DNA of 64,000 nucleotides from a virus: IMG/VR virus record IMGVR_UViG_2864926767_000001; one strand, written 5' to 3'. Within the stretch, counting starts at the first letter, position 1, and every line of letters begins with the position of its first letter. The position numbers and the translations under genes were made by a program. Shown here in pieces: positions 5,483 to 17,801 of this stretch. Under the pieces are notes generated by a model that worked only from the letters and a program-made list of their open reading frames with translations, did no database searches and had not been told where the DNA came from.

Positions 5483-7951
5483 GTGAGAATTGTCGATAAC
5501 TATCTGACAAATAAGAAGATTCAGCAGTATCGCGACGAGGCTGAAGCCATCCTCGAGTACGCTGAAACCCTAAAGGGGATGGAAGACTGGACGCTCGTCG
5601 TCAACTTCACACAGATCAAGACCGCCCGTAACCGGCCGAATATGCTGCTGGCCTACGCCATCATCACCGAGGTGATCCAGCGCAAGCTCAAACTCTCTCC
5701 TTACGTAGAGCAGATCATGGGTGCCCTGGCGATGGGCGATGGTCATATCGTCGAGATGGCAACCGGAGAAGGTAAGACCCTTGCAGCGGCGTATCCCCTG
5801 GCCTGGCACGCACTCTTCGGACGCAGTCACTGCATTACCGCGAACGATTACTTGGCCCGGCGCGATTCCGAGTTTCTGCACCCGGTCTATCAGACGCTGC
5901 ACCTCAACTGCGACTACCTGCAGGAGAACTTTGGCCGCGAGACGCGCCAACTGTCGTACCGCCGGCAAATCGTATACGGCACTGCAAGCCAGTTCGTCTT
6001 CGACTACCTGCGGGACAACACGGCCCTCGACGTCCAGGATCTCATCCAGCAAGGAAACAACTTCGCCCTGATCGATGAGGCCGACAGCATCCTTATAGAC
6101 GAAGCCAGGACGCCGTTCCTGCTCTCCGGAGAGGTTGGGGCTGAGGATGACCAGTATCAGCTTCTGGACGAGCTTGCACGCAGCCTGGAGGCCGTTGACG
6201 CGCCAATTGACGTGAAGACCAAGCTCGACACCCTCGTCACCCGGCGTACCTCAGATCACGGTGATTGTCTGGTGGACATCCGAGGTCAGGCGGTTAGTCT
6301 CACTGAACGAGGCTTCGCCAAGGCGGAAGCGTTCCTGATTGAACGTGGGATCGTCGCCGCCGGCCGACAGTGGATGCCGGAGGAAGCTCCGGTCTGGGCC
6401 GCCCTTTTCGCCGCACTCAAAGCTCACTACGTCTTCCAGAAAGACAGAGACTACGTGGTCTCTGAGCTCGGAGAAGTCATCACAGTTGACCCTGAAACTG
6501 GTCGTCTCAGTCCTGGTCGCCGCTGGAACCAAGGCATTCACCAGGCCGTGGAGTGCAAGGAAGGCCTCGAGGTCAAAGGCGAAGCCCGAGAGATTGGGCG
6601 TATCGCACTGGCCAGCTACCTGGACGTCTACGATGACGTTGCCGGGATGTCAGGTACGGCCGTCGCCGTGGCCGATGAGCTCCATACCCTCTACGGTCTC
6701 AAAGTGATCCCAATCCCGAGGCACCTCCCCTCCAAGTTGGTACAGCACCCGGACAAGCTATTTGCAACCAAAGAGGCCAAGTTCAACGAGATCGCCGACG
6801 ACGTCGAGGCCATCCACAAGACCACTCAGCCTATCCTAGTTGGCACCGGGTCTATTGAAGATTCTGAGGCCCTATCCAAACTGTTCCATCAGCGCGGCCT
6901 GCACCATCGCGTGCTGAACGCGAAGCAGAATCTACAGGAGGCGCTAATCATCGCTGAGGCTGGAAAACCCAAAGCGATCACGATTGCCACCAACATGGCC
7001 GGACGCGGGACGGACATCCTGCTAGGCGGCTCTGCCGAACATAGCGATGCTGTGTCGGAGCAGCTCGTGCTTGAACAAGGCGGTCTGTTTGTCATCGGCG
7101 CTGAGCGTATGGATTCGGCCAGGCTGGATCAGCAACTTGCTGGTCGTGCCGGCCGACAGGGTGATCCTGGTCACGTGCGATTCTACGCATCTCTCGAGGA
7201 TGCCCTGCTGCGCCAGGCCGGCGCCAAGCACATGGCTCCCCTCTTCCGCTTTGCAGCTAACCCGGACGCCGGCCTCCAGGGTACGACAATCAGTCGGGCT
7301 CTCAAGCGGATTCAGAAGCAGAAGCAGTCCATGACTGCTGACGCGAGACGCGCAGGACTGGCTCAGGATCGCCTGCTAGACGAGCCGCGCGGCATCTTCC
7401 TCACCCAGCGTGATGTGGTTCTGCGCACGGACGCCGGGGACTTGCTGGATGACCTCGACCAGGTCGCCAGGCTGGCTGCTCATCGCCTGATGTCTGTGTA
7501 CAGCGATGCCACGGGCTCAGAGGGGCGCTCGGCTGTCCTTGAAAAGATCAAGCAGTGGCACCTTTCGCCATCCTGGGCTGAGCGTGCCATCCATGATTAC
7601 GAGAAAACTCTAAGCGTGGATGACTATGCTGTCCTGATCAGGGAGTTCGAGCAGTGGCTTTCTTTTGAGCTCACGGCGCGCTCCCGGAGCCTTCTGGAGC
7701 AGGAGCCGAAGGCACTGAAGCAGTCCATGCTCCTTGGCATCGATACCATGTGGCAAAGCATCGTCGAAGAGTCTGACAGAGTAAGGCAGGGCGTTTCGCT
7801 GCAGGCCTACGTCGGCGTGAAACCTCACCTGGCTCTGAAGCAGTCTATCTACCAGATCTTCCACGAGGCCCTGGCGGATGTACCGGTCGCCCAGCTTGAC
7901 TACTTCTTCGAAGCTATCGAGCAACACGCGTTGTCCCTGGAGGCAGCTTGA
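5483..7951 (+). CDS. secA: Preprotein translocase ATPase SecA (short form, no C-terminal Zn tail)
   Basis: EMATGEGKTL, TANDYLARRD, FDYLRDN, DEADSILIDEARTP, VLNAK, ATNMAGRGTDI, QLAGRAGRQGDPG. Confidence 0.95.
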   Translation: MRIVDNYLTNKKIQQYRDEAEAILEYAETLKGMEDWTLVVNFTQIKTARNRPNMLLAYAIITEVIQRKLKLSPYVEQIMGALAMGDGHIVEMATGEGKTLAAAYPLAWHALFGRSHCITANDYLARRDSEFLHPVYQTLHLNCDYLQENFGRETRQLSYRRQIVYGTASQFVFDYLRDNTALDVQDLIQQGNNFALIDEADSILIDEARTPFLLSGEVGAEDDQYQLLDELARSLEAVDAPIDVKTKLDTLVTRRTSDHGDCLVDIRGQAVSLTERGFAKAEAFLIERGIVAAGRQWMPEEAPVWAALFAALKAHYVFQKDRDYVVSELGEVITVDPETGRLSPGRRWNQGIHQAVECKEGLEVKGEAREIGRIALASYLDVYDDVAGMSGTAVAVADELHTLYGLKVIPIPRHLPSKLVQHPDKLFATKEAKFNEIADDVEAIHKTTQPILVGTGSIEDSEALSKLFHQRGLHHRVLNAKQNLQEALIIAEAGKPKAITIATNMAGRGTDILLGGSAEHSDAVSEQLVLEQGGLFVIGAERMDSARLDQQLAGRAGRQGDPGHVRFYASLEDALLRQAGAKHMAPLFRFAANPDAGLQGTTISRALKRIQKQKQSMTADARRAGLAQDRLLDEPRGIFLTQRDVVLRTDAGDLLDDLDQVARLAAHRLMSVYSDATGSEGRSAVLEKIKQWHLSPSWAERAIHDYEKTLSVDDYAVLIREFEQWLSFELTARSRSLLEQEPKALKQSMLLGIDTMWQSIVEESDRVRQGVSLQAYVGVKPHLALKQSIYQIFHEALADVPVAQLDYFFEAIEQHALSLEAA

Positions 7952-8005: not shown

Positions 8006-8034
8006 AAAAAAGGCCCGCCATTGGCGGGCCTTTT
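8006..8034. terminator. Bidirectional terminator between secA and ftsZ
   Basis: AAAAGGCCCGCCA-T-TGGCGGGCCTTTT. Confidence 0.8.
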
Positions 8035-8050
8035 CGCGACTCAGAAGTTC

Positions 8051-9529
8051 CTAGTCACGAATTCCTTCACCCTGTTGGCGGCGAAGGAAAGCCGGGATAT
8101 CCAGGTAGTCGAGGTCGTCATGCTGGTTTTGCTGCTGCGGCTGCTGGGTTCTCTCAGCGGGAAGCAACCTCCGATTGTCGAGTTCAACCGGGCGGCTGGC
8201 AGCCATGCGAGTACCTTCTTGCTCAGCGTACTCGAACTCTTCGCGGGACTGACGAGTGTTGCGCGGCTCGTACTGGCGCTCCTGGAACTCGCGCTGATGC
8301 AGGTCGCGGGTACCACCTACCGGACGCTGCACGCCTTGCTCAGACTGGAAGCCGTGGCGCAGGATGCGATGATCTTGAGCCGCCGGACGAGCTGCAGATA
8401 CACCCAGGTCGTCATGTTCACGACGATTGTCGAACTGACGCTCTTGAGTCATAGCAGGGCGCAGTTCAGCAACTTGAGGACGCTGAACCGGATTACGGCT
8501 AACTACCGGCTCCTGCTTCGGCTCTGCGGCGCGAAGAGGCTGAGCGGCCTGCTTCATTTCCGCCTGGTACTGGGAATCGCCCAGACCGGTGATGACTACA
8601 GTCACAGTCATCTCTTCACCCAGGTCAGGATCGATGACAGTACCGAACTTCATACGAGCGTCAGGCGATGCGAATTCTTCGATGATTGCACCGACGGCCG
8701 CGTACTCGTCCAGCGTCAGATCCTGGTTGGAGGAGATATTGACGAGGATGCCTTTGGCACCCTGGAGATTGGTGTCACGCAGCAGCGGGTGGAACAGGGC
8801 GGCTTCAGTGGCTTTTTGTGCACGATCAGCACCGCTAGCACGGCCTTCACCCATAACAGCTTGGCCGGCCTTTTCCATCACAGCCTTCACGTCGGCGAAG
8901 TCGACGTTGATCATGCCAGGGCGCTTGATGATGTCGGAGATGCCGCGAACCGAGCTGCACAGAACGTCATTGGAGTGAGCGAACGCCTCCAGCAACGAGC
9001 ACTTCCCGGCCATCTCTTGGATCAGCTTCTCATTCTTCACCACGATCAAGGTGTCGACGTATTTTTCGAGCTCTTTCAGGCCTTCCAGTGCGTAGGCCAT
9101 GCGCTTACGACCTTCGAACATGAACGGCAGGGTCACCACGCCTACGGTGAGGATGCCCTTCTCTTTAGCGATTTGCGCGATTACCGGGGACGCGCCAGTA
9201 CCGGTGCCGCCACCCAGGCCAGTTGCGATGAAGAGCATGTCAGCGCCATGCATGGCATCTGCAAGCTGGCTGCGGTCTTCCAGGGCCGCTTCCTGGCCCC
9301 TGGCCGGATCGGCGCCAGCGCCCAGACCTGAGGTGGTGTTAGCGCCGAGCTGGAGGACGCTCTTGGCCTTGGTGTTCTTCAGTGCCTGAGAATCGGTGTT
9401 GGCGACGATGAACTCGACACCCTCGATGTTGTTCTCGCACATGTGATCCACGGCGTTACCGCCGCCCCCACCCACGCCAATCACCTTGATGATTGCGCCG
9501 CCATCGCCGCGATTACTCGTTTCGAACAT
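8051..9529 (-). CDS. ftsZ: Cell division GTPase FtsZ with a long linker
   Basis: IKVIGVGGGGGNAV, GGGTGTGA tubulin signature, T7 loop NVDFADV, C-terminal DYLDIPAFLRRQ. The ATG at 9529 has GGAG at 6-nt spacing. Confidence 0.96.
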   Translation of the reverse strand: MFETSNRGDGGAIIKVIGVGGGGGNAVDHMCENNIEGVEFIVANTDSQALKNTKAKSVLQLGANTTSGLGAGADPARGQEAALEDRSQLADAMHGADMLFIATGLGGGTGTGASPVIAQIAKEKGILTVGVVTLPFMFEGRKRMAYALEGLKELEKYVDTLIVVKNEKLIQEMAGKCSLLEAFAHSNDVLCSSVRGISDIIKRPGMINVDFADVKAVMEKAGQAVMGEGRASGADRAQKATEAALFHPLLRDTNLQGAKGILVNISSNQDLTLDEYAAVGAIIEEFASPDARMKFGTVIDPDLGEEMTVTVVITGLGDSQYQAEMKQAAQPLRAAEPKQEPVVSRNPVQRPQVAELRPAMTQERQFDNRREHDDLGVSAARPAAQDHRILRHGFQSEQGVQRPVGGTRDLHQREFQERQYEPRNTRQSREEFEYAEQEGTRMAASRPVELDNRRLLPAERTQQPQQQNQHDDLDYLDIPAFLRRQQGEGIRD

Positions 9530-9683
9530 GTGCATCTCCGTAATTTACAATTTCGCAGTAAGCGCCGGGCGGCGCTTGGGTAAGGTTGCCGAGGTGGTAT
9601 GGCAAGGTGTCGCAATACTGCCAATATTCAGCTGCTCTAGCAATACGCTTGGCCGCTAAAAATGCGCCTTTTCTAATAAATTG

Positions 9684-10199
9684 TCAGTTCGACAACCCCA
9701 GCTCCTCTCCGAGCTCCGATTTAAGGCGCGCGGCGATGTCCTGGCCCAGCTGCTGCGACAGGGATTCGCTCTGCTCCATTCGGAAGCGCAAGGTTTCTGA
9801 TCCCATGAACACGGACTTTCGGCCTAGCTTGGAGTGATAGAAGGAGTTGAGCTGGTTGATCTCATCAGCGGTCAGGCCGCTAGCGTAGGCCATCACAACC
9901 TTCTGGTTAGCCTGCTTGATGGCGTCGGCTTTGGACATGTAGGCCTCGTAAACAATCTGTTCGGCCCTGACGTACACCTGCTCGGGCTTGCCGGCGAAGC
10001 GCCTACGAACCTCCTGGCCATTTGCTTTTGCTGCTTGCCGCGCCAGTTGCTCGGGAGACTGCGCCAGGCCTGACGCCTGCAGCAGCTCATTGATCGCGTC
10101 GATCTTCTCGACAGTGATCTGCTCCGCTTTGGCCTTGGTCGCCAAAGCCATGTAACAGATGGCCGTCATTGCGACGGCCATGCGTATCATCTTTCTCAT
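9684..10199 (-). CDS. Secreted DUF2059-like protein
   Basis: Signal peptide; YASGLTADEINQLNSFYHSKLGRK resembles the DUF2059 motif (Y...T..E...L..FY.S..G.K). Confidence 0.65.
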   Translation of the reverse strand: MRKMIRMAVAMTAICYMALATKAKAEQITVEKIDAINELLQASGLAQSPEQLARQAAKANGQEVRRRFAGKPEQVYVRAEQIVYEAYMSKADAIKQANQKVVMAYASGLTADEINQLNSFYHSKLGRKSVFMGSETLRFRMEQSESLSQQLGQDIAARLKSELGEELGLSN

Positions 10200-10236
10200 T
10201 TCAGTGTCCTTTCAGTGGAGAAGCTTTGGAGAAGCT

Positions 10237-11559
10237 TCAAAAGGCGGGAGTGGCCGGCTCGTATGCGGTCGCGGCCACCAGGGCCTTACCGCTGGGCTTC
10301 ACCGCCTCATCGAGCACATAGGTGCGGTTCAGATCGCGGTCGATCTCCAGCACGTTGCCGAGAGGTTTACCGAAGGTGTGGAAGGTGCTGAGCAGCGTGT
10401 CATTCTTGCTCTCGCCCTTACGCACGTCAGCGTTACGCATAGCGACTGGGGACACCAGGTAGGCGCTCTGCTGCTCGAAGTTCATGTACGGATAGGTGTG
10501 GAACAGTCGATCCACTCCGGACTTAAGCTGTTTGAGCTTGCCTGCCAGGTAGTCCTTCTGGAAGTTGGCATTTCCAACCGGGCCGCAGTTGGTGCGCTGC
10601 GTGGGGATGATCTCGGCTTTCATGCCGTTCCTGACCATGTAGGTGAACCAGGAAGCGTTCTTGGAGAGGAACTCATTCCAAGTCGCCTCCCCGTTGATCA
10701 CCCCACCACCGTTGGTGTAGTTGTACCTGGTGTTCAGGTTCTTGACGCAGGAAAGCTCGACAATACGAGTGCCCCTCTCCTCTCGGTAAGGGCGAATGAT
10801 TACGCCGCCATACATCCCGTCGAACATGTTGGAGTCGAGCAACTCGATGATCTGGCGCCTGGCGTTCGCCTGGTTGACCAAGTCCAGTTCCTCAATGCGC
10901 CGGTACTGGACATCCACACCGATGAACCAGTGTTTCTTGCCCATGGCCAGCAGCTCCCTGGTGAGGTCACTGACCTCCACCTGGATCTGGATCAACGGCA
11001 CCCCATTCACCGAAACCTGCTTGTCTGCGACGGCCTTGGTGACAATGGCGTTGAGCTTCTGCAGGCGAAGCTTTTTCGTGGCGTAGGCTGAATCTGCCGT
11101 CGGGAAGATCGTGTTGATCTCTAGGTAGCCCGTGCAGATCTTGGGCTTCTTCAGCTTGGGGTTGGTTTTCGACTTAAGCACCGACATCCAGGTGGCTTTG
11201 AGGACATTGTTGTCCTTGTCGATGAACTCGACCTGCTCGGCGACAAAGGCCCCGCCAGACACGGTGCCGGGGGCGTTGTCGTCCGTGGCGAAGCACGGAT
11301 TCTTCGCGCGGTCGTCATCATCAGCCAGGTCTTCAAGGCTGGGGACGGTCTTGTCAGCACGGTTCTTGGCTTCATCGATGAAGCGTTGCGGAACCTCAAG
11401 AGTCAGCTTGAACGGAGCGCCAGCCTGATCAACGCCCAGCATGACGCAATCCTGAGGGGTCTTCCCGATCTGGTAGCTGCGGGGGTAACCCACGAAACCA
11501 GTCGTCAGGCCCTGCTTCAAGGCTTCGATACTGCCAAGTGGCGGTTTCATGTCGAGCAC
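10237..11559 (-). CDS. Hypothetical protein, paralog of 36607..38487
   Basis: 440-aa ORF; its N-terminal ~110 aa aligns by eye with 36607..38487 (PRSY, PS...AKN.C.A...N, A.W..VL). Confidence 0.8.
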   Translation of the reverse strand: MLDMKPPLGSIEALKQGLTTGFVGYPRSYQIGKTPQDCVMLGVDQAGAPFKLTLEVPQRFIDEAKNRADKTVPSLEDLADDDDRAKNPCFATDDNAPGTVSGGAFVAEQVEFIDKDNNVLKATWMSVLKSKTNPKLKKPKICTGYLEINTIFPTADSAYATKKLRLQKLNAIVTKAVADKQVSVNGVPLIQIQVEVSDLTRELLAMGKKHWFIGVDVQYRRIEELDLVNQANARRQIIELLDSNMFDGMYGGVIIRPYREERGTRIVELSCVKNLNTRYNYTNGGGVINGEATWNEFLSKNASWFTYMVRNGMKAEIIPTQRTNCGPVGNANFQKDYLAGKLKQLKSGVDRLFHTYPYMNFEQQSAYLVSPVAMRNADVRKGESKNDTLLSTFHTFGKPLGNVLEIDRDLNRTYVLDEAVKPSGKALVAATAYEPATPAF

Positions 11560-11779: not shown

Positions 11780-14308
11780 TCAGTCCTCGGTACGAATGCG
11801 CGCCATACGCGCCAGCATCTGCTCTAGGGCATCGGAAACGCCCTCTGCAGTGAGTTTGTTCGGCTGAGGGTCTACCGGGTAGTTGATCGTCTCATCGATG
11901 ATCTCAAGCCCCCTGCGAGCCTCCTCCATGGCTTCCAGCTCACTACGGCCGGCTGCCTTCTCAATCTCAAGCAGTTGCTTGATCGGCATGGCACGGTCTT
12001 TCTGGTCTGCCGACAACACCTCGGGATAGACCTTGAAGCTCTCTTTCACCGAGTCGCTCATCAAGTCGCTGAGTGACTTGAAGACATCGTCCGCCTCGTC
12101 GAGGATCGATGTGTCGTACTCCTCATCATCCTCCTCGTGGAGGAATGGGAGGTTCCCGAGCACTGTGTCCATCTCCTGGTCATAGCGCTTGGCGGACGGC
12201 CTTGCCGGCGGCAAATCGTCATCCGAGTCGTCTTCCATGATGGGTGCCTGACGCGGCGCCGGGCGTACTGCCGGCGCTGCTGAGACCCCGTTCGCTCTGC
12301 CCTTCAGAGAGGCGACGAACTCATCGTCCAGCAGCTTTTCCTTGTGCTCCATCATGCCAAACGCGATCTTGGCCGCCATGTCTGGCTCCTGAGCCCTGGA
12401 CACAGCCACGTCGTAGGCGTTGAACAAGGCCTGCAGGTTCCTGTCCAGGTCGACGGGCTTGGATCGGCGGCTATCAGCCTGGCTGTCATCGAACAGCTTG
12501 GTGATGTTGTTCCTCGAATCACGGAGCGTTTTGACCATGTCTCGGCTTGGGCCGTTGACCATCAGCATCCGATTGATACGGTACTCAGGCGATTTCTCCG
12601 GGTCAGTGAAGTACAGGCTCACCCTGGCCAGCTTGTCGCCGAAGATGACGTGGGCCTGGCCTGGCTTCTGGTCAACCAGGTCGCGGACGTTGATCCGTTT
12701 TTTACGCTCGGACTTCGACTGGTTATTATCCGCATATCCAGGGAACATCCCTTTCGAAACCTCGTAACCAGCCGAACTTGCTGTTTCGGCTTCACCAGCA
12801 CGCTCGATTGCCAAGTCCAAAGTTTCTTTGGCATCTTCAAGTTTCATGAAGATTTTAATGTTGGTGTTTGCAACAATGGATTTGGCTTCTTTTTCATCTG
12901 AGCGCTGGAAGGATGGGAAGTCCTGGCCAGCGAAAACAACAGAAATACCAAGGCTTCGGGCCTGGGCCGCAACAACCGAGAAGCCCTTGACGCTGTAGTA
13001 GCCGTATTCATCAAGTATTAGCATGAAGGGTACGTCAGAGTTTGTCGGCTTAGCGTCGATTACTTCTGCGTGAGAACCTTCTACTTTTTCACCAAGTGCA
13101 GGTGCAAGTGCACTTCGAACACCGGCCACAACCAACTTTCCGAGACCTGCTAGTGCGTCCGGCTCTTTCTCGAGGGCCGGCAACATAACAAATAGGATTC
13201 GGCGATTGTAAACAAGGTCTTTGTAGTCCACCTCCCCTCTCGGTGCATTGAAGATGTGAGAGTAAGTTGCAGACAATTCTTGCAGCACCTCGGTTAGCTG
13301 CATTGTCAAATAGTTGTGTTGTTCGTAACACTTGGCGTTAAGTTCGCCTTGGCGTGCTTCTTTCTCCTGGTAACCAGGAAGTTCGAGGAGATACTTATTA
13401 AGAAGAGAGATATTTTTCTCTGGAATATCTGCGCGCTGAGTTAGGTCTAGAATCCTATCCAAAGGCATGTTGTCACGCAGTACACCAACGTCCAAGTTGA
13501 TCTCGCCAGTGTCTCTCAGATACACCAGGCAATCGAGCAAAGCCAGCAGCAGCGCGTTCGCGCGGCCTTTCCACATGTCGTCGCCGCCCCCGTCGCGCAT
13601 CAGCGATGCAACAAGGGACTGAATTTGTTTCGCAGGGCCTAGGGCAAACGGGTTAGTTGTGTTGGAAAGCCGCGAACCATCATTAATGCTCTTGTCTGTT
13701 TTGGAGCCTGTTAGATAGTTGATTACAAGTAGATCGTCCTCTCGACCAAGCCTTCTGACCATCGAGAAAACGAGGCCGAAGACGGTAGTATCCCCCTTCC
13801 CGTCTACATACATTACGCCAGACCCGAGAACCAGTGCCTGGTAGAAAAGAGATAGCAGGAAGCGGGTTTTCCCCGAGCCTGTCGAGCCAAATACCAGCAT
13901 ATGGGTACGAGCATCGTCGTTGCTCACCCAGAACGATTCGTTAGTTACCAGATCATTGCCGATCAGAATGATGCCGTCACCAATCGGAACGCTCTTGTAT
14001 TTGTCCTTTCCTTTCTTACCTTTCACGCGGACTTGTTTGGTCTCTAGTGGGTTGAAAGGATGGCGATGCGGGTACTTCCTGACGTGCCGCTTGGCGTACA
14101 GGTAGGCCATGAGCGCGACGAGAATGAATATGTCGCTAGAGGTGGCGTAAGGACTGAACGGAAGTACGAAAGCCATAAATCCAAGGAAGCAGACAACGAA
14201 GCCGCCGATCTCAGCAAAGAGGCTCCTGATTCTGTACTTCAGCGGCCTGATCTCACGCTGCAAAAGTGTGGGGTCGAGGTCAGCGTTTTTCGTTACGCCA
14301 TGTACCAT
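11780..14308 (-). CDS. dotL: Type IVB secretion coupling ATPase DotL/IcmO (TrbC-like)
   Basis: N-terminal LDPTLLQR as in IcmO, TM segments, RTHMLVFGSTGSGKT, YVDGKGD, ILDEYGYY, AQARSLG, FAGQD, ANTNIKIFMKLED. Confidence 0.92.
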   Translation of the reverse strand: MVHGVTKNADLDPTLLQREIRPLKYRIRSLFAEIGGFVVCFLGFMAFVLPFSPYATSSDIFILVALMAYLYAKRHVRKYPHRHPFNPLETKQVRVKGKKGKDKYKSVPIGDGIILIGNDLVTNESFWVSNDDARTHMLVFGSTGSGKTRFLLSLFYQALVLGSGVMYVDGKGDTTVFGLVFSMVRRLGREDDLLVINYLTGSKTDKSINDGSRLSNTTNPFALGPAKQIQSLVASLMRDGGGDDMWKGRANALLLALLDCLVYLRDTGEINLDVGVLRDNMPLDRILDLTQRADIPEKNISLLNKYLLELPGYQEKEARQGELNAKCYEQHNYLTMQLTEVLQELSATYSHIFNAPRGEVDYKDLVYNRRILFVMLPALEKEPDALAGLGKLVVAGVRSALAPALGEKVEGSHAEVIDAKPTNSDVPFMLILDEYGYYSVKGFSVVAAQARSLGISVVFAGQDFPSFQRSDEKEAKSIVANTNIKIFMKLEDAKETLDLAIERAGEAETASSAGYEVSKGMFPGYADNNQSKSERKKRINVRDLVDQKPGQAHVIFGDKLARVSLYFTDPEKSPEYRINRMLMVNGPSRDMVKTLRDSRNNITKLFDDSQADSRRSKPVDLDRNLQALFNAYDVAVSRAQEPDMAAKIAFGMMEHKEKLLDDEFVASLKGRANGVSAAPAVRPAPRQAPIMEDDSDDDLPPARPSAKRYDQEMDTVLGNLPFLHEEDDEEYDTSILDEADDVFKSLSDLMSDSVKESFKVYPEVLSADQKDRAMPIKQLLEIEKAAGRSELEAMEEARRGLEIIDETINYPVDPQPNKLTAEGVSDALEQMLARMARIRTED

Positions 14309-14346
14309 GTGTCACCGTTTCTTATTGTTCTTATTGGTGGCGCTAA

Positions 14347-14748
14347 TCAGTTTTTCGTGACCCAGCCAAATTCGTTGCACAAGAAGGCATGCTTCTCGTA
14401 GTACTTGATCGGAATCTCGGCGGAGAGGTCTTCCAGGTTGATCTCCGGGTACAGGGCCTTCAGGTAACGGCGCACGCGCGGCTCGGTTCGTTCGTCGCAA
14501 CGACCTTCAGCCAAGTGCTTGATCATCCTGTCCAAGACAAGCCAGTCCCTGACCATTTCTACGGTCAGCATCACGCCCTGCTCGGCAGCCTGCTGGTAAG
14601 CCATGGCCAGGGAAGCTTCCACCAGGCGAATCATGGCCAGCCTCCACCTGAACTCATCCAAAGGCGGTAGCCAGTCGCTGAAGGCCGCGATCACCTCGCC
14701 GAAGTGCCTCCGGACGAAAATGTCCTGGGTGAACGGTGGCGCTCTCAT
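14347..14748 (-). CDS. Stand-alone protein resembling the DotL all-alpha domain
   Basis: ATGA-coupled to dotM. W...L.V..VRD.L.LDR....YL..L....K.YE.H..L pattern is shared with DotL residues encoded at ~13295-13575. Confidence 0.7.
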   Translation of the reverse strand: MRAPPFTQDIFVRRHFGEVIAAFSDWLPPLDEFRWRLAMIRLVEASLAMAYQQAAEQGVMLTVEMVRDWLVLDRMIKHLAEGRCDERTEPRVRRYLKALYPEINLEDLSAEIPIKYYEKHAFLCNEFGWVTKN

Positions 14749-16088
14749 ATGCCCATCTCCCACATGTCGTCCGAGTGATCCTGGGTTTGCCCTTCCCTCG
14801 CCGTCAGACCCAGCGCAACGCGCAGCCCTTCAATCGCTTCGGTGGTCTCTGGGTAGGGCACTGCAAAGCCGCACTCGGTTTCAAGCAGCCAATGGGCCCA
14901 AGTGCCCGAGGACTCCGTATACGCCGTTTTCTTGCCCACGTTGCTGATGGCGTACCAGAGAGGCCTGTTACGACCTTTGAGCCAGCGCAGGATGAGAGGT
15001 GGCAGAGTGGCACCCTCCCGTGCGGCCTCCAGGAGCGTCATAAGGCCGGTCGACACGAAGGCATGCTTGGAGAGCTTCTCGTCGGCAACCACCTGCTGCA
15101 GCACCCCTTTGAGCGAAGGACTGGCACAAAGAGAGCGGGCAACCGAGTCCGTTGGGCGCCAATCAGACTTGGCATCCATCTGCTCCTTCACGAAAGCCAT
15201 GAGCTTGTCGGCCAGGGCCTTGTGAGAAATATCCTGAGTCTTGTAGCGGAATCGGCTGGGTTGTTTCTTACCTGCGCGGCGAGCCTTCTCGATCATGTAA
15301 GCCTGTTTCAGGTAATCCTGGACGTATGGAAGCACTTCATCACGCTTCACCAGGATCTTGTCGATCAGCAGGTCGGTGATGCGCTTGGCGTCTTCGTCGA
15401 GGTTGTTGTAGCCGGCGTACATGGGGCCGAGTTGACTGTCGAAAGCCTTGCGCGCCAGTTCTTCATCGAACGCACCGGTCTCCTGCACCCAGATTGGGCG
15501 ATTGAGGCGCTTATCCTTGAGTGCGGCATTGGCCAGGCCAACCGGAGGAACACAGGTGGCGAACTGGCGCTCACCCATAGCCATCGAGTACTCGTAGGTG
15601 TCCGGGTCGTCCGGGTAGAAGTCGAGGGGCGTCTTCTCGGGGTGCTTGCCGATGAAGTCTTTTACGTGCTTAAAGCCGGGCGCCATCTTCGGCAGGATGT
15701 TCTCCATGTTCCAGCCCGAGAACGCGATATCACCACCCTGGATGTGAAGCTTGAAGCCATAGAAGCAGATGATGAGCCCCGGCAGCCAGTTGAAGAAGCA
15801 GAGGTAGAGGTTGTCGAACTTGCTGATAATCTCAGCCGTGAGGATGTCCGGGTCTGAGGTGAGTAGGAAGCGCAGGCCGGCCTCGAAGTCGAAGCCGATC
15901 AGATGCTCCACCGAGTCCGGGATCAGGAAGGCGAAGAAACCCACCTCCAAGACGCGGAGCCACTTCCAGAAGGTCGCGTAAACCCAGAAGATCTGGCTCA
16001 GGCCCCAGATAGCCAGCAGAACGACGATGATCAGGATGATCCCGACGTTCTCCAGGTTTGAGTCCTGCCCACCACCACCTTTAGCCAT
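14745..16088 (-). CDS. dotM: Type IVB coupling-complex protein DotM/IcmP (TrbA-like)
   Basis: N-terminal TM helices; C-terminal KHAFVST..LLEAAR..LP....WLK...R.LWYA..NVG....E..G..AHW..E signature. Confidence 0.88.
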   Translation of the reverse strand: MAKGGGGQDSNLENVGIILIIVVLLAIWGLSQIFWVYATFWKWLRVLEVGFFAFLIPDSVEHLIGFDFEAGLRFLLTSDPDILTAEIISKFDNLYLCFFNWLPGLIICFYGFKLHIQGGDIAFSGWNMENILPKMAPGFKHVKDFIGKHPEKTPLDFYPDDPDTYEYSMAMGERQFATCVPPVGLANAALKDKRLNRPIWVQETGAFDEELARKAFDSQLGPMYAGYNNLDEDAKRITDLLIDKILVKRDEVLPYVQDYLKQAYMIEKARRAGKKQPSRFRYKTQDISHKALADKLMAFVKEQMDAKSDWRPTDSVARSLCASPSLKGVLQQVVADEKLSKHAFVSTGLMTLLEAAREGATLPPLILRWLKGRNRPLWYAISNVGKKTAYTESSGTWAHWLLETECGFAVPYPETTEAIEGLRVALGLTAREGQTQDHSDDMWEMGI

Positions 16089-16092
16089 TCAC

Positions 16093-16644
16093 CTAGTCCC
16101 CTGACTGCTGACGCAACCACGCCAGCGTGTTCGATTCGTCGTAGTCATCGACGTGTTGTTCTTCTTCTGGCCCGAACAGCGATCCCTCGCTCAAGGTCAC
16201 CGTGTTTTCGGGTACGACCGGCTCATTTACCTCGAAAATGCGGCCTTCAATCACACTTGCTTGTTCCATCGGAGTAATCGAAGCTTGTGAAGGCCTCTCC
16301 CAGCCCTTTCCTGGGCCTGTCTCAACTTTCTGCGGCTGCGCCACTGCTTTTGCTGTCGATGGCCTCGGTGGCGCTTCTGGAGGCCTTCCTGGCCCTACTT
16401 CACGTGCTGACTTCGGCTTCACCTTGCCCCTAAGGTCTTCCAGGCGCCTGAGATCCGGGTTTCGTGCCCGGATGAACGCTTCCTCACCGCCCTCCTGCCT
16501 TGCCATAACCCTGAAACCGATCAGGGCCATCTGCGCCAGCTCCATCGATTGCCGGGTGCGCCCTTCGATGCCTTCAAGATGGAGGATCAATTCCAGGTGC
16601 AGCGGGTCTTCGTCGTAGAGGTTTACAACCCTCCGGTGTCTCAT
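16093..16644 (-). CDS. Putative ParR/StbB-like adaptor
   Basis: ATGA-coupled directly downstream of parM; compact N-terminal beta-alpha-alpha-like segment, then a disordered acidic tail. Confidence 0.55.
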   Translation of the reverse strand: MRHRRVVNLYDEDPLHLELILHLEGIEGRTRQSMELAQMALIGFRVMARQEGGEEAFIRARNPDLRRLEDLRGKVKPKSAREVGPGRPPEAPPRPSTAKAVAQPQKVETGPGKGWERPSQASITPMEQASVIEGRIFEVNEPVVPENTVTLSEGSLFGPEEEQHVDDYDESNTLAWLRQQSGD

Positions 16645-17660
16645 GCCGCTACGCCACCCATCTTGTATTCCGCGAACTTCAGCATCCCCAGGGCGTTCTC
16701 GAAGACAGGGTCTTCGGCCATCACCTGGTTTCTGAACCACCCCTGCAGGTAACGCTCCAGGTACTGGCTGGTGCCGCCCAGGAATGTCACTTGCTCGATG
16801 TCATGCGACTTCTGCAGACACGACTTGATCGTCGAGCGGATCTTGTTCACCACAGCCTTGTTTGCCTCTTCGACCAAGGCGCGGACGTCATGGGTCTCAC
16901 CCCACAGGCGAATCAGACCAGTACGCAGGGCCTCATCGACCTGCTCGTCAGTTACCTCGATGCCTTCGAAGCGGTGGAATAGACGCTCTCGAATGTCCTT
17001 TACGATGTTGATCATCCCGATGTCTTCGGTCGTGGAGCGGTCACCGTCGAGCTCCCAGTCACGGATCACGGCGATGTCCAGCGTGCGGCCGCCGATATCG
17101 ATCAGGGCCATGCGGCGCTTCACGCGCTCCTTGTCGAAGTCCAGCTTTCCTGATGGCTGGCGAACCAGAATCTGGTTTACCCAGGCAGCGATGCCTTCGG
17201 ACATAACATCGTGCCGGGAAATAATTGGCGGGATATATCCATCAGCGCCGGCAACATCCCCTTTCATGAGGTTTTTGCGCTTCCTGGAAATTACCGCCTT
17301 ATTTGGCGTATTCCCTATGTAATAACGCTTCAGCGGAAGTCCGGATACACCATGAATTTCAACATTGCTGGGCAGGTCGAACTGGCGCAGTGCGTGGGCC
17401 ACGATGACCCTGTTCTGAGCGCTGAACGGATACTCGTCGTAAGCCGTGAACTCGGAGGTGCCGATGTCACCGACCGTGAAGGGCCCGTCCTCTGTGTTGT
17501 ACACCCAGTTGCCGCTGGTGGAGCCGCTGATGGAAATCTTGTTGAAGACACCGCTGGCCGCGCGCGACGGGATGACGAGCCTGGAACCATTCGAGAGTAC
17601 GATCTTTGTGTCGCGGTGGCCGTCATCAATACCAGCGAACAATACTTGTTTTTGTTCCAT
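16641..17660 (-). CDS. parM: Actin-like ParM/StbA plasmid segregation ATPase
   Basis: GIDDGHRDTK (phosphate 1), SGLP, SEGIAA, IDIGGRTLD (phosphate 2), FLGG (adenosine), PVFENALG. Confidence 0.9.
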   Translation of the reverse strand: MEQKQVLFAGIDDGHRDTKIVLSNGSRLVIPSRAASGVFNKISISGSTSGNWVYNTEDGPFTVGDIGTSEFTAYDEYPFSAQNRVIVAHALRQFDLPSNVEIHGVSGLPLKRYYIGNTPNKAVISRKRKNLMKGDVAGADGYIPPIISRHDVMSEGIAAWVNQILVRQPSGKLDFDKERVKRRMALIDIGGRTLDIAVIRDWELDGDRSTTEDIGMINIVKDIRERLFHRFEGIEVTDEQVDEALRTGLIRLWGETHDVRALVEEANKAVVNKIRSTIKSCLQKSHDIEQVTFLGGTSQYLERYLQGWFRNQVMAEDPVFENALGMLKFAEYKMGGVAA

Positions 17661-17801
17661 TGACAAACTCTCGAATAAATAAGTCAACGGAAAATATAAA
17701 TCAGCAAGAGTTTGCTTACAATAGAATAACTGCTTGTCGATCTTGTGCTTAGTTATATATTTGGCGTTATTGTGGTTCGCACTTATATTTATCTAGGCAT
17801 T

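Follow-up and report, generated by a model that had tools for sequence, protein, structure and literature searches.

The occurrence of an intact ftsZ on a mobile element raises the question of what a complete bacterial division protein does in a place where no other gene of the division machinery accompanies it. The gene lies in the window, by which the whole analysed stretch of 64,000 nucleotides is meant (virus record IMGVR_UViG_2864926767_000001), and an initial annotation made from the letters alone had proposed that it encodes a true FtsZ able to co-polymerise with the host Z-ring, with which the element could delay or reposition division or bypass SulA arrest. Analysis of the genome, the neighbourhood and the relatives of the locus identified it as an accessory full-length FtsZ paralogue on a conjugative megaplasmid of the Dot/Icm type, about 1 Mb in size and low in GC, which belongs to the pMPPla107 family. 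As to its role, we consider it fairly probable that this FtsZ, which is kept by selection and most likely inherited with the plasmid backbone, acts through the division machinery of the host with altered dynamics or altered inhibitor sensitivity.

The open reading frame is real and is located on the minus strand, which had been left unstated (Table 1). Because GGAG is found 6 nt before the second of two in-frame ATG codons, the start at 9529 (492 aa, MFETSN...) is likelier than the one at 9535, and an entry of a public protein collection (P0002, a singleton) has exactly the 492-aa form. The motifs GGGTGTG and NVDFADV, the conserved C-terminal peptide DDLDYLDIPAFLRRQ and the terminal QGEGIRD, on which the initial annotation had relied, were all recovered from the translation, and GVGGGGGNAV, NTD and FEG.KR could also be read directly in the globular domain. 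The T7 synergy loop MINVDFADV, on which GTP hydrolysis within the polymer depends, is the same in the window protein, the host and E. coli. Pfam matches were obtained to PF00091 Tubulin (6.8e-47) and PF12327 FtsZ_C (5.5e-30), and the score of 403.4 bits on the NCBIfam ftsZ equivalog TIGR00065 exceeds the cut-off of 295.2 bits. The best solved relatives are the P. aeruginosa FtsZ structures 2VAW and 1OFU (E ~1e-126), which share the fold, the GTP-binding and T7 motifs and an identical DDLDYLDIPAFLRRQ, with 64% identity in an almost gapless alignment of the globular part. AlphaFold2 gave residues 12-320 a pLDDT above 90, left the linker at 39-58 with no secondary structure and predicted the tail peptide to form a short helix. 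The linker, estimated beforehand at about 150 aa and rich in Q, R and E, measures 156 aa (Q 15%, R 14%, E 11%), roughly 2.5 times the 63 aa of the host linker.

Table 1: Features of the plasmid ftsZ locus in the window, with positions counted from the first nucleotide of the window.
Feature	Position	Strand	Remarks
secA paralogue	5483..7951	+	822 aa; convergent with ftsZ; 637 bits, below the SecA equivalog cut-off of 814
Hairpin	8007..8035		13-bp G+C-rich stem with flanking A and T runs; predicted strong two-way intrinsic terminator between the secA paralogue and ftsZ
Plasmid ftsZ CDS	8051..9529	-	492 aa; stop codon 8051-8053; alternative in-frame ATG at 9535 gives 494 aa
Extended C-terminal variable tail	8054..8074	-	QGEGIRD; host has AD there; five residues more
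Conserved C-terminal peptide	8075..8119	-	DDLDYLDIPAFLRRQ; predicted helix at residues 480-487
C-terminal linker	8111..8578	-	156 aa; predicted disordered
Globular GTPase and FtsZ_C domain	8579..9502	-	residues 12-319 in 494-aa numbering; AF2 pLDDT >90
Ribosome-binding site	9536..9539	-	GGAG; 6 nt upstream of ATG 9529; abuts ATG 9535
DUF2059 gene	9684..10199	-	directly upstream of ftsZ in the same direction; backbone gene
orf440	10237..11559	-	440 aa; conserved backbone gene
Gene string	11780..17687	-	parM-like gene, 215-aa ORF, dotM, small ORF, dotL (coupling protein); same direction as ftsZ

The equivalog score, the GTPase and FtsZ_C domains, the T7 loop, and the disordered linker with the FtsA/ZipA-binding peptide are thus all those of a TIGR00065-type FtsZ; the location beside ftsA in a dcw cluster is lacking. 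The claim that the protein is a true full-length FtsZ and neither TubZ nor PhuZ was therefore upheld. TubZ and PhuZ are likewise tubulin-superfamily proteins encoded by mobile elements, from which the window protein differs by passing the equivalog threshold, by its FtsZ_C domain and docking tail, by the lack of any match in PHROGs (where FtsZ, DUF2059 and orf440 all remained without one) and by the lack of a TubR-like neighbour.

The assembly in which the window is contained comprises 7.58 Mb in 83 contigs with a bimodal GC content, most of them being near 0.66, while contig C1 and others totalling about 1 Mb are near 0.575; the window sits on C1 (450 kb) and so in the low-GC class. The initial annotation would have been refuted by the gene being the only ftsZ of its genome. 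This is not the case, because a canonical dcw ftsZ is present at C7:219771-220952 on a chromosomal contig of 65% GC, where it encodes 394 aa in the order ftsQ-ftsA-ftsZ-lpxC..secA and is 61-64% identical to the plasmid copy. The orphan status of the latter was borne out: ftsA, ftsQ and lpxC are absent nearby, the neighbours being the secA paralogue, DUF2059, orf440 and dotL, and the models of FtsA, ZipA, SulA and MinC found nothing on the low-GC plasmid contigs and matched high-GC chromosomal contigs only. The assembly was reported with 2.5% contamination, which would favour a reading of the gene as an artefact of assembly or contamination from a second organism, or else as a functionless, drifting hitchhiker. 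However, rpoB is present in a single copy, on a high-GC contig, so that the low-GC set does not represent a second organism, and the gene order of the locus recurs in complete circular plasmids; together with the conservation discussed below, this leaves the artefact or hitchhiker reading largely refuted and highly improbable.

These relatives belong to the pMPPla107 family of Pseudomonas megaplasmids, with which the backbone of the low-GC contigs is collinear. A megablast search of the locus against PLSDB plasmids returned a match of 72 bp only, and the relatives were obtained from protein searches instead. The best matches of the secA paralogue (42-43% identity) are encoded on the complete circular plasmids pPL1, pBASL58, pMPPla107 and that of FeN3W (0.9-1.17 Mb), all with the same gene order around it, and a search with aligned sequences of the orf440 protein added two complete plasmids, pMPCFBP13716 and pPLMAXa, as well as five metagenome contigs. 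Synteny and protein identities of 40-62% connect the window to all six complete plasmids, and its replicon agrees with the family in size (about 1 Mb), in a GC content of 57.5% as compared with 66%, and in the collinear backbone of secA paralogue, orf440, DotL, DotM and ParM. Members of this family were reported to be of ~0.9-1.2 Mb, to have a GC content below that of their hosts and to carry many housekeeping paralogues, among them diverged copies of DNA polymerase III subunits, DnaB and tRNAs (PMC6482414); ftsZ is not mentioned in the main text of that report. The window plasmid shares both the backbone and this habit of keeping diverged core-gene copies, of which its SecA is another case.

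At the locus itself, all 11 related loci of sufficient length have the secA paralogue in the same place, always converging on the slot that ftsZ occupies here. Upstream, neither a terminator-like site between dotL and ftsZ nor, within the 148-nt gap ahead of ftsZ, a sigma-70-like promoter could be detected; expression of the gene is assumed for the latter reason, and the two findings combined make it possible that ftsZ is transcribed by read-through from the transfer/partition operon. An operon of this kind would suit a division brake tied to conjugation, in which FtsZ, made together with the coupling protein, would act as a dominant-negative subunit in the host Z-ring and delay septation in donor or newly converted cells until replication and segregation of the 1-Mb plasmid are complete. 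Such a brake is in line with the position of ftsZ as the last gene of a one-direction string (parM, dotM, dotL, orf440, DUF2059, ftsZ) whose sole detected terminator follows it, and with the finding that the truncated Agrobacterium FtsZ1 blocks division when overproduced (PMC13732431), but the same 148-nt gap has room for a promoter of ftsZ's own, and a simple inhibitor would have no need of the full docking peptide. We regard the brake as unlikely, also in view of the related copies discussed below.

The neighbourhood bears on a further possibility, namely that the protein is an FtsZ by descent which works as TubZ does, as a filament for segregation or positioning of the plasmid. Its place in the partition/transfer backbone near a ParM-like gene and its fast evolution, as seen in plasmid cytomotive filaments, could be so explained; yet the plasmid already possesses that ParM-like gene, neither a TubR-like adaptor nor centromere repeats adjoin ftsZ, the FtsA/ZipA-docking peptide is conserved at the protein level, and seven related plasmids of similar size do without the gene. 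A segregation filament is accordingly held to be very unlikely. As for orf440, it was also considered as a divergent FtsA and rejected, the BLASTP E-value being 3.5 with no Pfam or NCBIfam matches, so that by sequence it is not FtsA. Its counterpart in pPL1 (L004:9954-11203) matches in two pieces as two separate ORFs, pointing to a frameshift or an error in sequencing.

Within the plasmid family, the slot between DUF2059 and the convergent secA holds ftsZ in five members, which are the window, pPL1, pPLMAXa, a contig from a sequencing run (L008) and a 486-kb contig (L078). In seven others, pMPPla107, pMPCFBP13716, pBASL58, the FeN3W plasmid and the contigs L077, L080 and L081, ftsZ is missing and the slot is empty or filled by other genes, so that the gene is dispensable for plasmid maintenance. 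An AAA ATPase takes its place in pBASL58 (L005:11626-13583), and fibrinogen-like proteins with the YCDxxxxGGGW domain do so in the FeN3W plasmid (L007:11707-13783). In a tree of the DotL and SecA backbone proteins the four complete plasmids without ftsZ form one clade (100/99), and the presence of the gene is explained by a single change of state.

The FtsZ tree, calculated from 49 rows and 309 columns of the globular domain, placed the four plasmid proteins analysed in one clade (UFBoot 97, SH-aLRT 73), for which support is moderate on SH-aLRT and whose placement long branches can mislead. This clade is nested in a group with the chromosomal FtsZ of Pseudomonadaceae (100/99), apart from 28 other gammaproteobacterial families. 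The inner topology (window,(L008,(pPL1,pPLMAXa))) is the same quartet as that of the DotL and SecA backbone, suggesting that ftsZ was inherited along with the plasmid. Most likely, ftsZ was captured once from an ftsZ of the Pseudomonadaceae type and then passed on with the backbone in one fixed slot. Placing the root of the FtsZ tree on the backbone tree as well would make the gene ancestral and its loss in the branch of pMPPla107 probable, a conclusion sensitive to long branches. In its GC3 of 0.67 the plasmid ftsZ resembles its plasmid neighbours (0.64-0.79) and not the chromosomal ftsZ (0.83).

The terminal branch of the window FtsZ measures 1.0-1.4 changes per site and those of chromosomal Pseudomonas copies at most 0.04, which amounts to an evolution at least ten times faster in the plasmid proteins. 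Such a very long branch, and the absence of the gene from part of the family, would be expected of the drifting hitchhiker mentioned above, but the ORF has stayed intact in five plasmids that share just ~54% identity in their backbone proteins, and of the 114 near-invariant columns (conservation of 97% or more among 46 canonical proteins) the window copy retains 101, the L008 copy 106 and the pPL1 copy 112. The docking peptide, moreover, is identical to that of the host chromosomal FtsZ in all 15 residues, while the DNA agrees at 37 of 45 nt and the codons have diverged at 8 of 15 third positions; selection, and not recent gene conversion, hence maintains the peptide, which would not be expected of a drifting gene. 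At dN values of 0.30-0.38 synonymous sites are saturated, so that dN/dS is not properly measurable. Purifying selection is nevertheless evident in the sequences from the retention of the GTP-binding and T7-loop core and of the docking peptide. One replacement, T215A (E. coli numbering), is common to all five plasmid copies at a site where 45 of the 46 canonical proteins have T.

Departures from the canonical protein are concentrated in a few regions. The linkers are 156, 133 and 115 aa long in three plasmid copies and ~90-115 aa in the remaining two, hence all longer than that of the host. Judging from linker-length studies in E. coli, a linker of 156 aa may be ill suited to a gammaproteobacterial divisome. 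No tandem repeats were found in a search of the window linker, and across the plasmid copies the linkers are unalignable apart from one weak shared island. This short island, EQEGTRMAASRP at 8159-8200 of the window (about residues 446-459), has a counterpart in L008 (EQYDGARVAASRD) and a faint one in pPL1.

In the globular domain, the residue corresponding to E. coli G191, which 42 of the 46 canonical proteins have as glycine, is replaced by S in the window copy, by C in pPL1 and by N in L008, and in place of the host's TAGP the loop at E. coli 265-268 reads SSNQ (window) or TANA (L008). Substitutions at F268 and G191 were found to permit escape from SulA, MinCD, T7 Gp0.4 and T5 Hdi with division retained (PMC10714956), and the changes at both sites in the window protein would fit an altered sensitivity to inhibitors. 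From this, one could construe the plasmid gene as an insurance for division: an inhibitor-insensitive FtsZ would join the host ring by way of its conserved core and tail and let division continue when host FtsZ is blocked, be it by SulA once transfer has induced SOS, by phage proteins of the Kil, Gp0.4 or Hdi type or by MinC, and cells could keep dividing under such a block because the H7 and 265-268 surfaces are altered. If true, this would be a strategy of a mobile element to replace the target rather than the inhibitor. However, pPL1 is altered at just one of the two sites (G191C) and pPLMAXa at neither G191 nor 265-268, so that escape from inhibitors is not the reason for which the family as a whole keeps ftsZ. 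As an explanation of the gene the insurance is held to be unlikely.

Non-conservative changes in the window copy are P164K, beside the base-contacting N165, as well as M220A and G267N. These could impair GTPase activity or assembly, P164K being the most worrying for activity. A non-conservative replacement so near the nucleotide pocket, in combination with the very long linker, is also what a dominant-negative brake could look like; still, the copies of pPL1 and pPLMAXa are almost canonical (pPL1 keeps 112 of the 114 invariant positions), which is unlike a poison subunit.

The element encodes no FtsA, ZipA, MinC or SulA, and its FtsZ therefore probably acts through the machinery of the host. 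In the reading that we prefer, the plasmid protein is most likely incorporated into the host Z-ring, whose behaviour it would then modify. Contacts with host FtsZ would be made along the conserved longitudinal interfaces, a co-assembly with which the conserved core and tail agree, and the tail would dock on the FtsA and ZipA of the host, while the 2.5-fold longer disordered linker and the altered helix H7 and 265-268 loop would change the dynamics of the ring and its sensitivity to FtsZ inhibitors. Our best guess is that the protein tunes or protects division in cells bearing the plasmid; a replacement of the host gene, or a part in plasmid segregation, seems unlikely.

Compared with a canonical gammaproteobacterial FtsZ, the window copy stands out by its location outside a dcw cluster on a conjugative megaplasmid, the linker (156 versus 63 aa), the tail QGEGIRD, the remodelled H7 and 265-268 loop, an evolution at least ten times faster and its state as a second, presumably non-essential copy. 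Extra copies beside an essential dcw ftsZ are likewise known from Hyphomicrobiales as truncated proteins (FtsZ1 and FtsZ3 of Agrobacterium, plasmid copies of Bradyrhizobium and Rhizobium), some of which are plasmid-borne and which are thought to tune division (PMC13732431). Those paralogues lack linker and docking peptide, whereas the window FtsZ, from a gammaproteobacterium, is complete, its linker being enlarged and its peptide preserved. The long retention of a complete FtsZ with its docking tail on a transmissible plasmid, with no other divisome gene, suggests that a direct action on the host division ring is open to mobile elements. The plasmid copies also offer natural FtsZ variants, with long linkers, altered H7 and 265-268 regions and fast-evolving surfaces, for questions of linker length and of mixed polymers. 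Literature searches found no paper on FtsZ of Pseudomonas megaplasmids. The well-studied pMPPla107 and pBASL58 are themselves without ftsZ, having probably lost a gene that is still present in deeper branches of the family, and only less-studied branches carry it.

Extra full-length FtsZ copies are rare in Pseudomonadaceae: when 401 species genomes were searched with the window protein, the only second full-length ftsZ was that of the window. Two genomes of one small-genome genus (L042 and L043, in G064 and G048) contain a second FtsZ-like ORF of ~200 aa with 34-42% identity, which is restricted to the N-terminal GTPase domain; these extras were set aside as fragments and as a different thing from the full-length copy. 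In a same-genus genome, a contig of 486 bp (L041, G024:C166:1-486) encodes an FtsZ fragment of 161 aa that is 50% identical to the window protein, less than expected of a chromosomal copy, and may derive from another ftsZ of the plasmid type. A separate, plasmid-like metagenome contig with ParA/KorB, CsrA, H-NS and PhoH (L009) encodes at 10001-11479 a full-length FtsZ of 492 aa with a Q/P-rich linker of 160 aa and an intact tail, EFLDIPAFLRRQND. It branches outside the Pseudomonadaceae, and large plasmids may accordingly have acquired long-linker FtsZ more than once and independently. Finally, in a database protein of 840 aa (P0124) two complete FtsZ units are arranged in tandem, with a proline-rich spacer between them.
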